From the NCBI RefSeq assembly GCF_014896945.1, contig NZ_CP054719.1, forward strand, positions 147,153-171,152: a stretch of 24,000 bases of DNA. The letters are read 5' to 3'. Of the stretch, positions 16,662-20,051 are shown one piece after another. The translations under genes were made by a program, and so were the position numbers. This DNA is from Candidatus Bodocaedibacter vickermanii (GTDB lineage: Bacteria; Pseudomonadota; Alphaproteobacteria; UBA6184). Position 1 is the first letter of the stretch; the number at the start of each line of letters is the position of its first letter. The notes beneath the pieces are model-generated. The model ran no database searches, was not told the DNA's origin, and saw only the letters and a list, made by a program, of their open reading frames with translations.

Positions 16662-16672
16662 AAAAACAGTGC

Positions 16673-16700
16673 ACGTTCATTTTATCCGTGATTTGCTATA
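16673..16700. repeat. Third copy of the GTTCATTTTATCCGTGATTTGCTATA module, at the left edge of the inserted cassette
   Basis: ACGTTCATTTTATCCGTGATTTGCTATA matches 14357-14385 and 14637-14664. Confidence 0.7.
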
Positions 16701-17028
16701 ACTGTTATATATAAGCTAAAGATGTGTGTACGAAATAATAATAAAAACAATAGATGATGGATATGCCCTTATTCCAGATTCTCAGGTGTTTAAAGGAAAA
16801 ATTTCTGTGAGGCTAAGTGTAACATTAATAAAAATAGCAAAGGCTTCCGAAGAGGGATCGCCAAGATCACCATCATCACCTGGAGAAAGAAGAAAATAAG
16901 GAAGCATTATTTAATTTTGTCTGATTGTTAAGAGAGCAATTCTAACTATTGTAATATTTTTTCTAGATAAACGGAGTAGATTCTATTATAGATAGGATTC
17001 TAAAAATAAGTTAATACGGAGAAGAATA

Positions 17029-17529
17029 ATGAATAAATTTTTATATGCTATGTGTCTGCTTGGAACAATGTCTCACGCGGCTGAGGCGGCTGCTCATGAG
17101 GGGGCGCTTTCACCTCAAGGGCATCATGGTGGGAAAAATGGTGGGATGTGTGGCACAGCTTTCAGACATTGCGACGAGGCTGCTACGCTAATAATCACAG
17201 TTAGACAGCTAGACGAAACAAGGGGAGTAATTGGTAAACCACGGGATTTTCCAATTTCTAGCAATATGACGGTCCCTGATTTCAAAGCTATTTTAATGGA
17301 GGCTTTAAGAATTCCTGCTGCCCACCGTATAATGTGGAATGGTGTTGAAGTTATGAGAGAAAATGTTGATGCAGAGCGCGCATTAATTACTTTAGCCTCT
17401 ATATTTAATGGGGTATCTGGAATACTTACTATTGATGTAATAGTGGATCATGGTCGATCACCTATGCTGACACCAGTTCCGGGATTGAGTGGCGATGTGT
17501 CTCCATTGAAGGTTGATGAATCCGACTAA
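17029..17529 (+). CDS. small secreted orphan protein A (signal peptide; possible ubiquitin-like beta-grasp core)
   Basis: 166 aa. GGAGA lies 8 nt upstream. MNKFLYAMCLLGTMSHAAEA looks like a signal peptide. The gene has its own terminator at 17554-17580. A long ORF in AT-rich DNA is unlikely by chance. Confidence 0.7.
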   Translation: MNKFLYAMCLLGTMSHAAEAAAHEGALSPQGHHGGKNGGMCGTAFRHCDEAATLIITVRQLDETRGVIGKPRDFPISSNMTVPDFKAILMEALRIPAAHRIMWNGVEVMRENVDAERALITLASIFNGVSGILTIDVIVDHGRSPMLTPVPGLSGDVSPLKVDESD

Positions 17530-17553
17530 TTGCGTTGTGTAGATAGCGTACCA

Positions 17554-17580
17554 AAGGGAAGAGAAATCTTCCCTTTTTTT
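17554..17580 (+). terminator. intrinsic terminator after cassette gene A
   Basis: AAGGGAAG-AGAAAT-CTTCCCTT followed by a T-run. Confidence 0.8.
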
Positions 17581-17703
17581 GTAGTGTTTCAATATCTGAG
17601 GCTAACAATAAGTCAGAATTAGTATAGCACTTTAATAAAAAAGCCGCCTTTGGGCGATTTTTTCTTTATACTAATAAATGCATAATAAATATAAGGTGAT
17701 AAA

Positions 17704-18237
17704 ATGCGGTTTCTTATAACACTATGGCTGTTTATATTCGTTAGTTTTAGTGCATTTAATAATGTTCACGCATCACAAGCCATCGATCTTTCGTTTAGTG
17801 TGTATTTAGAAATTAATGGTCGATTTATCTATCCAGCAGGTCAGATCGCAGAAGATATCAATAGTAAACCATTTGAAATGATAGTGAGTGTTAGAGGGTT
17901 AACAAATCAGACTCTACAGAGAATATTATTAGATTTTTGCTTGGGTAACCTAGAAATAGGTTCAGTTAGTACTATTCAAGTGAATATAGATCCGCTTTTA
18001 AAGAGTGGTATAGTCATGACACGTGTTGAAAGCTACATGACATCAAGTATGGCGAGCCCTACAGCTTCTGAAAGTATTCATTCGCTTTCAAAAGAATTAG
18101 ATCTATTAGTCTTAAGTAAGTGCGAATTAATCGAACACATTTATGAAAATTCATTACGTGTGAGCATTCAGTCGTCAACGGATTCTATTCATACGGTTGG
18201 CTATAGGTTGAGACAGAAAGAATTAAGTCTTTTATAA
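17704..18237 (+). CDS. small secreted orphan protein B
   Basis: 177 aa. AAGGTGA RBS. MRFLITLWLFIFVSFSAFNNVHA looks like a signal peptide. Shares the RxL(T/A)TNQTLxxxxL motif with protein E. Confidence 0.7.
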   Translation: MRFLITLWLFIFVSFSAFNNVHASQAIDLSFSVYLEINGRFIYPAGQIAEDINSKPFEMIVSVRGLTNQTLQRILLDFCLGNLEIGSVSTIQVNIDPLLKSGIVMTRVESYMTSSMASPTASESIHSLSKELDLLVLSKCELIEHIYENSLRVSIQSSTDSIHTVGYRLRQKELSLL

Positions 18238-18346
18238 TATAAAAGTACCCCCTTACTAAGTTTGTTTTTAAGTCATAAAGAAATTTGACTTCTTTGTTAA
18301 ATATATATAAAAATCAAGCAATTTACAGTTAAGAAAGGATAAATAA

Positions 18347-18850
18347 ATGAGAATAATTTTAAATCTAAGTGCCTTTGCCTTTATGTGGTTAAGTTTGGTA
18401 AGTGGATCAGCTTGGGATCTAGGACACGATCAAGATACGTTTAACATTGATATTGACGTAAAACTTGTCTGGGATGGCGAGCCTGTTAACTGTGTTTGCA
18501 ATCATGGGTCTGCATCTTGTGAGAGTCCATATTTTAACATTGGTTTAAAGCGTTTATACTCACAGCACGGGGATAAATCTTTTGAATCAGTAGTGGCAGC
18601 AGCTATGGGGTCCATTATTCAACAATTTCAAAGTGCGGGTATATTACCCGGACGCAATTTTACATACACTTCGATGCAATTAATCAGAAAAGATTTAGAG
18701 CCTGATTTAGAGCCTGATTCCGATGATGAGTGTGCGGTGTTATGGCAGGCACCTATGTCTGAAATAGTTGATCAAATAGATGTCCTCAAACCATTGGCTT
18801 TAGAAAATAGATTAGCTCAAACAAACCTTGACGAGCGTTCTGGATTATGA
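18347..18850 (+). CDS. small secreted orphan protein C (Cys-containing, acidic C-terminal half)
   Basis: 167 aa. AAAGGA RBS. MRIILNLSAFAFMWLSLVSGSA looks like a signal peptide. Its stop overlaps the start of D (ATGA). Confidence 0.7.
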   Translation: MRIILNLSAFAFMWLSLVSGSAWDLGHDQDTFNIDIDVKLVWDGEPVNCVCNHGSASCESPYFNIGLKRLYSQHGDKSFESVVAAAMGSIIQQFQSAGILPGRNFTYTSMQLIRKDLEPDLEPDSDDECAVLWQAPMSEIVDQIDVLKPLALENRLAQTNLDERSGL

Positions 18851-19344
18851 AATACGCACTTATATTAAGCCTTATATTCACCATACGATGTGTTGTTGGA
18901 TCTGAGGCTTCTATAACTATGAATGCAGAAACCACTGACCAACCTCAAACAAAAAAGGGCTTTATGTTTAAGCTAAAAATTAATGAGAACGCGGTCTTGT
19001 CGAACAATAACTGTCCTGCAATATTTCAAATTGAGTGTGCAGCATCTGTAAGCAACGTTGAAATACCTACATTAGTACAACAAGCATTAATATCAATGTT
19101 TGGATTAAATATAGATAATATTGAAACGATGACTTTTGTTCTTTTTAACAGACAGCTTCATCTTCTTAATAACAAGTTACACGAGCCCTTTAAAATGATG
19201 TCTATAGCATGTATTCCAACGTGTGAACTATTAACTAAAGATTATCCTAAAAAGGGAGTTGAGAGAGACAAGTATATAAATTTTGCTCCATTTTTTATAC
19301 AGCAGTATGTGGATGGACAATACACATTGCATCACAGGCAATGA
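18847..19344 (+). CDS. small secreted orphan protein D
   Basis: 165 aa. MKYALILSLIFTIRCVVGSEA looks like a signal peptide. Translationally coupled to C. Confidence 0.65.
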   Translation: MKYALILSLIFTIRCVVGSEASITMNAETTDQPQTKKGFMFKLKINENAVLSNNNCPAIFQIECAASVSNVEIPTLVQQALISMFGLNIDNIETMTFVLFNRQLHLLNNKLHEPFKMMSIACIPTCELLTKDYPKKGVERDKYINFAPFFIQQYVDGQYTLHHRQ

Positions 19345-19351
19345 ATAACCC

Positions 19352-19813
19352 ATGATCAACTTACTAAAGGCAGTGCTGTTTGTTTGTCTGCAAGGAACTA
19401 TGATTTCCGCAAGCACAGAGATGACTATTATGGATAATGAATCTTATATTCAATTAAGATGTATTCATATGCCGTCGGTTCATGTTGCAAAAGAGAATAT
19501 AATTACCCTTAATGTTCCTAGGCTTGCGACCAATCAAACACTAGCTCAGTTTATTTTGGGAGCGTTGTTGGCGCAGGGAAGGGTTTCATCTACAGCAGCG
19601 CGAGTTCATATGTCCTTATACACGCGAGACTTAAATAATACCATCCGTGCGTTGACGATGCATGAAAAAAACGTGTTTTGGTTGCGCGTGGCTGACCGGG
19701 ATAAAAAGATGGGGCAGGTAAAGGAGTTAAGCCAGTTACCTTTATCATTTGTAGATATGTTGAGATCCTACTTTTTAATCTTGCACGTGGACGAAACCTT
19801 TAGCAAATTGTGA
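19352..19813 (+). CDS. small secreted orphan protein E
   Basis: 153 aa, 7 nt after D. MINLLKAVLFVCLQGTMISA looks like a signal peptide. TNQTL motif at residues 60-64. Confidence 0.65.
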   Translation: MINLLKAVLFVCLQGTMISASTEMTIMDNESYIQLRCIHMPSVHVAKENIITLNVPRLATNQTLAQFILGALLAQGRVSSTAARVHMSLYTRDLNNTIRALTMHEKNVFWLRVADRDKKMGQVKELSQLPLSFVDMLRSYFLILHVDETFSKL

Positions 19814-19843
19814 AACGTGGCTTTACATAACATATCTAAACAC

Positions 19844-19867
19844 AGCACCCTTCGGGGTGCTTTTTTT
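19844..19867 (+). terminator. intrinsic terminator ending the C-D-E operon
   Basis: AGCACCC-TTCG-GGGTGCT followed by TTTTTTT. Confidence 0.85.
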
Positions 19868-19880
19868 ATATCAAAATTCT

Positions 19881-19995
19881 ACCTTTCGGCGGGCTGAAAG
19901 CTCGCCGTTAGTGGGAAGGCAGACAGAGGCGCGAAGCGACGGTCTGCCGGGGTGGGTGGGTGAAAATGTCACTTGACCAAAGGGCAAGTGCCCAT
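19881..19995 (+). other. GC-rich multi-hairpin element directly upstream of the capsid gene; possible diverged family-2 repeat or structured RNA
   Basis: Hairpins GGCGGGC-TGAAA-GCTCGCC (19888-19906), GGCAGAC...GTCTGCC (19918-19948) and CACTTG...CAAGTG (19970-19990). Shares AGACAGAGGCG (19921-19931) and the CGGCGGG hairpin start with 5606-5777. Confidence 0.4.
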
Positions 19996-20051
19996 TGACG
20001 CTTACCTTTCTTATTAATTAAATCAACACTTTATAAACAGGAGAAACGAAT

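Follow-up and report, generated by a model that had tools for sequence, protein, structure and literature searches.

The window analyzed here is a stretch of 24,000 nucleotides of bacterial DNA, and its subject is a cassette of five small genes that lies between the prohead protease and major capsid genes of a head module of the gene transfer agent (GTA) type. The second protein of the cassette, B, matches at 100% identity a hypothetical protein from Candidatus Bodocaedibacter vickermanii, the Paracaedibacter-like bacterium that lives as an endosymbiont in the kinetoplastid Bodo saltans (Midha et al. 2021, PMC8163844). Locus tags are taken from the supplement to this genome paper: CPBP_00156 for the portal gene, CPBP_00158-00162 for the cassette genes A-E and CPBP_00163 for the capsid gene.

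Genes at the protease-capsid junction

The HK97-type head module occupies the window from 14.9 kb on and consists of portal, S78 prohead protease, major capsid and head-tail adaptor genes. This is the head gene order of clusters of the Rhodobacter capsulatus GTA (RcGTA) type, and the same order is found in the related loci L004, L009 and L012. The genes of the module and of the cassette are as follows.

14977-16122, forward strand: portal protein (HK97 type), CPBP_00156 (PF04860, E 3.8e-84; TIGR01537)
16218-16661, forward strand: prohead serine protease (S78), 147 aa (PF04586, E 3e-27; TIGR01543)
17029-17529, forward strand: gene A, CPBP_00158, 166 aa; signal peptide, SPxGxHG..GG motif, predicted ubiquitin-like beta-grasp at about residues 52-140, (R/K)SP...TPxP tail
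17704-18237, forward strand: gene B, CPBP_00159, 177 aa; signal peptide; clade-wide family of 14 members
18347-18850, forward strand: gene C, CPBP_00160, 167 aa; signal peptide and conserved CVCxHG motif; orthologues in L003, L005 and L009
18847-19344, forward strand: gene D, CPBP_00161, 165 aa; signal-peptide-like N-terminus; orthologues in L003 and L012/L013
19352-19813, forward strand: gene E, CPBP_00162, 153 aa; signal-peptide-like N-terminus; orthologues in L003, L009 and P0012
20052-21035, forward strand: major capsid protein (HK97 fold), 327 aa, without an N-terminal delta (scaffolding) domain (PF05065, E 5e-74; TIGR01554)
21038-21616, forward strand: head-tail connector/adaptor (PF05135, TIGR02215)

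An earlier note on this DNA, made from the sequence alone, had drawn attention to the 3,390 bp between protease and capsid, and most of its description of the interval was reproduced. The protease ends at 16661 and the capsid gene starts at 20052, which leaves a gap of 16662-20051. The five same-strand open reading frames (ORFs) of 153-177 aa that it reported were re-derived with lengths of 166, 177, 167, 165 and 153 aa. The insert is more AT-rich than its flanks, as claimed (GC 0.372, as compared to 0.417 over the window as a whole and 0.43-0.45 in the head genes on either side), and the translational linkage proposed for C, D and E is seen in an ATGA overlap of C with D and a gap of 7 nt between D and E. 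Scans of all five proteins found no Pfam, NCBIfam or PHROGs family, in agreement with the lack of any recognized family in the note, and Pfam scans of ten cassette proteins from relatives found no significant family either. In the D orthologues (L003 and L012/L013) an upstream start yields MRYLLVISLILTM.

The mechanical ORF of the portal gene starts with a GTG at 14902, and a terminator-like hairpin lies at 14934-14955; the true start is probably the ATG at 14977 (MWNWITGRK), judging from an N-terminus common to L003, L004 and L005. The protease has 147 aa as compared to 179-229 aa in phage homologues, and its ratio of nonsynonymous to synonymous substitution rates (dN/dS) against L003 is 0.13.

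Two sets of loci were used for comparison. Fourteen loci of the same clade, referred to by numbers with the prefix L, were collected by capsid scans and by look-ups of cassette homologues; their capsid identity is 80-94% where measurable, and they include Ca. Paracaedibacteraceae UBA6184 and 'Alphaproteobacteria bacterium CMAR1'. The second set consists of 39 phage or GTA-like loci from IMG/VR plus two annotated phages, with capsid identities of 36-46%; 38 loci of this set are informative.

Putative N-terminal signals for export

In the part of the published SignalP 4.1 table used here, proteins A, B and C are listed with no transmembrane helix and with the topology 'outside' (Midha et al. 2021, PMC8163844). 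The same paper counts 158 SignalP-positive genes in the genome, 105 of them uncharacterized and restricted to this genome and UBA6184, and reports that the genome encodes both Sec and a type VI secretion system. We additionally applied a heuristic based on a K/R residue, a hydrophobic 10-mer (Kyte-Doolittle mean) and a small-x-small site. Every cassette protein with a readable N-terminus, across all loci, carries the K/R residue, the hydrophobic 10-mer (mean Kyte-Doolittle 1.7-3.2) and the small-x-small site, while the 16 controls taken from the window, of which 14 have a known cytoplasmic or structural type and two are unannotated ORFs, fail. Judging from these N-termini, the cassette proteins are most simply read as Sec-exported. 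If they are exported, they would therefore not belong to a capsid whose assembly is cytoplasmic.

Protein A is predicted to be ubiquitin-like and has a truncated relative, Z

The AlphaFold2 (AF2) model of protein A has the element order b-b-a-b-b-a-b, as in the beta-grasp fold, with strands (E) and helices (H) at E54-61, E67-76, H82-93, E101-103, H122-127 and E134-138. When this model was compared to PDB with Foldseek, the top 50 matches were all ubiquitin or ubiquitin-like (Ubl) chains, among them the BAG6 Ubl domain, NEDD8, SUMO and ISG15 (probability up to 1.0, TMt up to 0.70). Sequence profiles point in the same direction. A profile of five A sequences retrieved the BAG6 Ubl domain first from PDB (E 0.16), and with a 19-sequence profile 16 of the 23 matches at E <=10, including the first 14, were ISG15 or BAG6 (best E 0.015). 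One member of the family matches Pfam Rad60-SLD with E 0.0014, at a score that falls far short of the curated Pfam cut-offs, and HHalign gave a probability of 86% for A against a small, hand-typed Ubl reference alignment. Single-sequence PDB searches with cassette proteins of L004 and L002 returned only weak, non-significant Ubl hints. We therefore predict, from the model and these profile matches, that A is a ubiquitin-like beta-grasp protein with a signal peptide. There is no C-terminal Gly-Gly after the last strand of A; a conserved D-x-x-(R/K)-S-P tail is found there instead.

The A family is small. An exhaustive profile search of 1.84 billion representative proteins recovered 19 clusters only, and a tblastn search with protein A against 50,697 phage records gave no match. 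The sole match of the A profile outside the family (E 7e-4) is P0031, a metagenomic protein of 1,662 aa made of tandem ubiquitin-like repeats.

The 367-bp spacer between the protease gene and A holds the remains of a sixth cassette gene, Z.

16762-16899, forward strand: 3' end of a truncated Z gene (BLASTP match, E 1e-10, with residues 65-115 in the full-length 128-aa protein of L014)

Members of the Z family are small ubiquitin-like proteins with a signal peptide and are present at full length, signal peptide included, in L014 and L004. In the window only the C-terminal ~50 codons are left, and L007 contains the same remnant (2637-2774); the ratio pN/pS between the two remnants is ~0.5. HHalign relates Z to A with a probability of 55% (E 1e-4).

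Proteins B to E are not detectably related to A or to each other

The AF2 model of B is better than that of A, with a pLDDT (predicted local distance difference test score) of 65.5. It has no significant neighbor in Foldseek searches, where the non-significant top list consists mostly of Ubl and beta-grasp chains, and against the viral structures of BFVD it matches nothing at E <=0.001 (best 0.04). The fold of B is possibly beta-grasp-like.

The earlier note considered B and E to be old paralogues on the basis of a shared TNQTL motif with different synonymous codons, and it saw the same layout of strand, loop and amphipathic helix more weakly in A, C and D. The motif is present at B67-71 and E60-64, and both its positions and its codons are as described. 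However, the conclusion did not survive comparison by BLASTP and by HHalign with and without signal peptides. The HHalign probability for B and E is 0.2-1.3%, and in shuffled sequences a 5-mer is shared among the ten pairs 12% of the time, or 1.6% of the time when the positional offset is restricted to 10 residues or fewer; the motif is weak evidence of paralogy. With signal peptides removed, B, C, D and E gave HHalign probabilities below 2% against each other, against A and against Ubl profiles. The data therefore do not support a paralogue family of five: among all cassette proteins, a relationship is detected between A and Z alone, each of them ubiquitin-like.

The cassette is syntenic and maintained, and its proteins change fast

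The junction is filled in every clade locus that shows both protease and capsid. The number of genes in it is five in UBA6184 (orthologues of A-E), nine in CMAR1, five in L009, three in L004 and in L012, and two in L001. An A-family gene follows portal and protease in 11 of 11 readable contexts (the window, L001, L002, L003, L005, L007, L009, L010, L011, L012/13 and L014/15), either directly or behind one Z gene, with A identities of 27-62%. The chromosomal neighborhoods of the cluster differ, with ybaB/recR in the window, a two-component system in L011 and rplQ/degP/recO in L012. BLAST clustering, with signal-peptide-only matches ignored, resolves six recurrent cassette families, which include A (28 members), B (14), E (6), C (4) and D (4). 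We infer an order protease-[Z]-A-[Y]-B-C-D-E-capsid with lineage-specific losses.

There is also duplication and decay. In L011 (9776-10969) an E gene is split into ORFs of 71 and 69 aa, with an intact E-like second copy behind it. In L014 a transposase of insertion sequence (IS) type with rve integrase domains lies directly after the cassette genes (3098-4027).

Between the window and UBA6184 the synonymous divergence dS is 0.7-1.3 for all genes compared. The dN/dS ratios of A-E are 0.24-0.44, versus 0.03-0.05 for capsid, portal, ybaB, recR and tatD; gene C has 0.44 and the capsid gene 0.045. Because dN/dS is 0.24-0.44 at such a dS, the cassette ORFs are maintained while their proteins change about ten times faster. 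The block is old, integrated and syntenic and is not a recent optional island, and its low GC content fits fast, weakly constrained evolution and need not indicate a foreign origin.

These observations bear on the proposal that a moron-like island rides in the cluster. Phage morons and lysis-released periplasmic toxins are exemplified by HK97 gp15 and by Shiga toxin in lambdoid late operons. The cassette resembles them in that it lies among conserved structural or late phage genes, has its own terminators and a deviant base composition, is absent from the 38 phage relatives and appears to encode exported, non-virion products. Morons are typically single, optional and recent, whereas this block is ancient, multi-gene, constant in the clade and set in a conserved regulatory frame; instead of the presence and absence among close relatives that an optional element would show, the junction is filled in every clade member. 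The export-like, non-structural part of the proposal thus holds, and the part concerning a recent, optional insertion does not: A follows the protease in all 11 contexts, B, D and E recur, and the frame is conserved. The other option given in the note, an exported accessory function of an undescribed kind that is linked to GTA expression, may still apply.

It might also be supposed that the cassette genes are passengers of little or no function, lineage-specific ORFs that build up and degenerate where an intergenic site permits it. Signal peptides are found in about one of every eight genes of this genome and 105 orphans are lineage-specific (PMC8163844), which would supply such ORFs, and the Z remnant, the split E of L011, the IS element of L014 and the low GC content would all be at home at a site of this kind. 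Against this, five ORFs have stayed intact at a dS of ~1 with dN/dS of 0.24-0.44, that is, below 1; the A family persists at ~30% identity together with its own conserved upstream element; and five signal-peptide genes in a row are unlikely to arise by chance (~0.13^5 per position). We consider the passenger explanation very unlikely.

Loss of the capsid delta domain coincides with the cassette

In 38 of the 38 informative phage and GTA-like relatives a stretch of 226-444 nt separates the protease stop codon from the position that corresponds to residue 1 in the window capsid; this stretch is open in the capsid frame and codes for the delta (scaffolding) domain. The adjacency of protease and capsid genes that the earlier note took as the normal condition is therefore confirmed, the interval being made up of delta-domain codons. 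In the endosymbiont clade, in contrast, protease and capsid are 1,618-5,431 nt apart and, read upstream from the capsid gene, the capsid frame is closed after 5-71 codons, in the window after 5. The window capsid aligns to TIGR01554 from model position 80 only (80-384), and it is short by 90-130 N-terminal residues relative to its nearest phage homologues (416 and 458 aa). Taken together, the comparisons point to two coupled changes in this clade, the loss of the delta domain and the presence of a gene block in its place.

The window capsid retains an N-terminal stub of ~27 residues before a K|SLTSES motif. We take this motif to resemble the HK97 maturation cleavage site. The capsid also shows a weak match to family 3 encapsulin shell proteins (E 6e-4).

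In many phages scaffold or decoration genes lie between the protease and capsid genes. One or more of the cassette proteins could accordingly be a separate scaffold that replaces the delta domain, or a capsid decoration protein; the block sits exactly at the codon position of the delta domain of relatives, and the delta-less capsid is under strong purifying selection. Similarity of this sort was looked for and none was found with known scaffold, delta or decoration proteins, whether by PHROGs, by comparison of the B model to the viral structures of BFVD, or by comparison of the delta domains of phage Cd and MW462191 to all cassette proteins (every E >0.1). An origin of the cassette from a delta or scaffold domain is rejected on this last result. 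Moreover, all members keep a signal-peptide-like N-terminus, the proteins vary in number and their evolution is ten times faster than that of the capsid, and the folds predicted for A and B are beta-rich and not coiled-coil. A scaffold or decoration role is, in our estimation, highly improbable.

Conserved non-coding elements frame the cassette

Conservation exceeds that of synonymous sites at three non-coding elements of the insert, namely the A-upstream region, the pre-capsid terminator and an element of 125 nt. The non-coding features are as follows.

16955-17028, forward strand: conserved region upstream of A (TTTTTTCTAGATAAAC...ATTCTATTATAGATAG...AAGTTAA.ACGGAGAA), from an alignment of A-upstream regions
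17553-17583, forward strand: intrinsic-terminator-like hairpin and T-run after A (10-bp stem at 17553-17576, then TTTTTGT)
19844-19867, forward strand: terminator before the capsid gene, with a hairpin AGCACCC-loop-GGGTGC (19844-19861) and T7
19879-20003, forward strand: GC-rich element of 125 nt with three hairpins, upstream of the capsid gene (folding z-score -4.6)

The core of the A-upstream region (~75 nt) is kept in the window, L003, L005, L007, L009, L010 and L014. Over the final 130 nt ahead of A the window and L007 are 93% identical, as against 43-45% divergence at synonymous sites, and the 15-mer ATTCTATTATAGATA occurs exactly upstream of A in L005, L006, L007, L008 and L009. The element is found even before the A gene of L008, which has only 34% identity, and it is single-copy in the window. 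It contains a direct repeat GATTCTA-N11-GATTCTA and TAGATA motifs. This region presumably comprises a promoter/operator and a ribosome-binding site.

The hairpins and T-runs at 17553-17576 and 19844-19861 agree with the earlier claim that the insert has terminators of its own. The pre-capsid terminator is kept in 6 of 7 genomes (the window, L001, L002, L003, L004 and L009; L012 has the T-run only), whichever cassette gene comes last. The element at 19879-20003 is 85-92% identical to L012 and L009, versus 56-62% at capsid synonymous third positions, with synonymous sites close to saturation; it is single-copy, shows one compensatory pair, and is missing from L001, L002 and L004, where other sequence is found. 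Rfam has no family for it, nor for any part of the window. We regard it as a candidate leader or regulatory RNA.

A different explanation of the cassette is that the exported proteins serve the particle system itself and are not host-directed, for instance as envelope or periplasmic release factors or as a block to re-adsorption. A block to re-adsorption would be akin to superinfection exclusion in phages, the proteins for which are likewise encoded as inserts in structural modules. The A-family genes are found solely beside portal and protease (11 of 11 contexts), the A-specific upstream element is deeply conserved, and the conserved pre-capsid terminator and leader suggest integrated regulation. 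However, the high dN/dS and the gene turnover would be unusual for parts of a conserved machine, close relatives have anything from 2 to 9 genes in the block, and there is no similarity to phage protein families. We regard service to the particle as rather unlikely.

A possible role at the host or envelope interface

The reading that we prefer, and hold with about even confidence, is that of an old block, specific to this clade of Paracaedibacteraceae relatives, of small Sec-exported and fast-evolving proteins at the site of the lost delta domain, for which a role at the symbiont-host or symbiont-envelope interface is the most likely one. The block would be framed by the protease stop codon, an optional Z gene, the promoter/operator-like region, A, a variable set of exported proteins, the terminator, the structured leader and the delta-less capsid gene. 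A alone, then B, then C-D-E may form separate transcription units. The exported proteins would act outside the capsid, be it in the periplasm, at the surface of the cell or, once set free by vesicle release or lysis, in the host cytosol, and the block would be inherited, and possibly expressed or released, with the GTA-like particle program. We favor the host or envelope interface because fast evolution, gene turnover, the eukaryote-type fold predicted for A and obligate intracellular life all fit it. The link to the particle could be co-expression, release by lysis as for the Shiga toxin of lambdoid prophages, exclusion of incoming particles, or one of position only.

A number of points weigh against this reading. 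Signal peptides had been ascribed to all five proteins by the earlier note; A-C do appear in the published SignalP 4.1 table, and our heuristic is positive for D and E, but this test is a crude one, and D and E (CPBP_00161/162) are not among the entries listed in the part of that table used here. The genome paper (PMC8163844) names no outer-membrane route for Sec substrates, and delivery of cassette proteins to the host cytosol is therefore a conjecture. The AF2 model of A has a mean pLDDT of 46 (60-72 in the core), and the sequence matches of A to Ubl proteins are borderline, at best E 0.015 in PDB and 0.0014 for Rad60-SLD. The fold of B is unconfirmed, and no fold is assigned for C, D and E. 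A promoter scan returned 30 sites versus 29.3 expected, which is no excess over chance, and therefore we draw no promoter claims from it. Finally, the conserved linkage could stem from entrapment in a conserved operon.

The interface reading may be taken one step further. The head system and the exported block could be one unit, in which the delta-less capsid or a linked lysis program has been repurposed for interaction with the host, and A and its companions would be a host-directed payload or be released by lysis. We judge this extension to be quite unlikely on the sequence evidence at hand.

Other features of the window

A further orphan with a signal peptide lies downstream of the adaptor, and the intergenic gaps contain a repeat family.

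21600-22085, reverse strand: signal-peptide orphan CPBP_00165, given under 'SignalP and SecretomeP' in the supplement of Midha et al. 2021
16672-16700, no strand assigned: dispersed intergenic repeat module (family D9), with further copies at 14353 and 14635

CPBP_00165 is oriented against the cluster and separates the adaptor gene from the head gene that comes next; it overlaps the 3' end of the adaptor gene by 17 nt and has a Q/S/P-rich tail. Orthologues are present in L003 and L009 and absent from L004, and L012 has a shorter minus-strand ORF at this place. The position is a second insertion hot spot of the cluster.

The module at 16672-16700 belongs to a modular dispersed repeat family that fills most intergenic gaps in both orientations, the GTA-like cluster included (834-1093, 5467-5868, 6793-6938, 9769-10101, 10442-10518, 14296-14663, 16091-16235, 16672-16700 and 22496-22610). 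Its units include GGCAACGTGCCGTTGCATCC, CCAGCGTGACGCTGG and TAATCCGTGTC..CACATCGGAT; the GGCAACGTGCCGTTGCATCC unit also occurs in L012, upstream of its capsid leader. The suggestion that repeat modules mark the two edges of the insert had to be abandoned: the left one is part of this window-wide family, and the right one (19881-19995) is rejected as a repeat, being part of the single-copy structured element at 19879-20003.

The first 14 kb of the window carry housekeeping genes (ssb, gyrA, pepA, holC, rtcB with a gene for a peptide release factor (RF-1 domain), tatD, recR and ybaB). No terminase gene lies upstream of the portal gene within the window, where ybaB, recR and tatD are found instead. 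Downstream of the head genes the clade has in common ORFs of ~430-470 aa and 285 aa without a family, followed by a Hydrolase_2 cell-wall hydrolase (L004 7108-10461, L009 15383-18305, L012 13671-16555); Hydrolase_2 is the sole family match among the L004 genes downstream of the head. No tape-measure or tail-tube family was found in these stretches of L004, L009 and L012, and therefore the tail part of the cluster is unrecognizable or replaced.

Comparison with known systems and implications

Two known associations bear a partial resemblance to the cassette. The eukaryotic association module of Wolbachia phage WO reportedly consists of genes for large proteins with eukaryotic-like domains and without Sec signals, at the edge of an active prophage. 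Like the cassette as read here, it places host-interaction-type genes in a phage-derived element of an obligate intracellular alphaproteobacterium; unlike it, the cassette encodes small, putatively exported proteins and lies inside the head module of a non-phage cluster. Beta-grasp or Ubl proteins are also said to take part in phage morphogenesis, as in the lambda tail assembly protein I family, whose members are described as cytoplasmic and linked to a JAB peptidase. A likewise carries a predicted beta-grasp/Ubl domain encoded in a phage structural cluster, but its gene is part of the head module, the protein begins with a signal peptide, and the window contains no JAB partner for it.

To our knowledge, the only comparable bacterial ubiquitin-fold protein with a signal peptide is BfUbb. 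Bacteroides fragilis secretes this homologue of ubiquitin, which has 63% identity to the eukaryotic protein and works between strains as an antibacterial toxin (PMC3352274, PMC5705921, PMC11467351). A shares with it an N-terminal signal peptide, a predicted ubiquitin fold and the lack of a C-terminal Gly-Gly, and differs from it in having no significant identity to ubiquitin, extra conserved N- and C-terminal motifs, and a location within the GTA-like cluster that an intracellular symbiont carries. Two features of the locus are unreported: the predicted ubiquitin-fold family with signal peptides that is tied to GTA-like head modules, and the delta-less capsid. Equally new is one set of orphans with signal peptides locked into a head module at the lost-scaffold site with conserved control sequences of its own.

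GTA-like head clusters are known from Holosporaceae and Rickettsiales endosymbionts (George et al. 2022, PMC9254644). In the portions of that paper on which we draw, the authors give no settled answer as to why GTA head genes stay under strong purifying selection in obligate endosymbionts whose genomes are tiny, and they speculate that the particles have been given a new use in host interaction or in carrying non-DNA cargo. The cluster described here is like theirs in having a portal-protease-capsid-adaptor arrangement in a reduced endosymbiont genome, purifying selection, a reduced or unrecognizable tail and no adjacent terminase. Those portions mention neither genes at the protease-capsid junction nor a lost delta domain nor exported proteins, and in our comparison it is the block together with the truncation that defines the present clade of Holosporales.

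The locus adds a small new family of bacterial proteins with signal peptides and a predicted ubiquitin fold. The delta-less capsid of 327 aa raises the question of encapsulin-like self-assembly, and the block of putatively exported proteins at the lost-scaffold site may bear on the role of the particle in symbionts. If the head system and the cassette were indeed one host-directed unit, this would answer why reduced endosymbionts keep GTA head genes; in any case the locus provides concrete candidates that bear on this retention.

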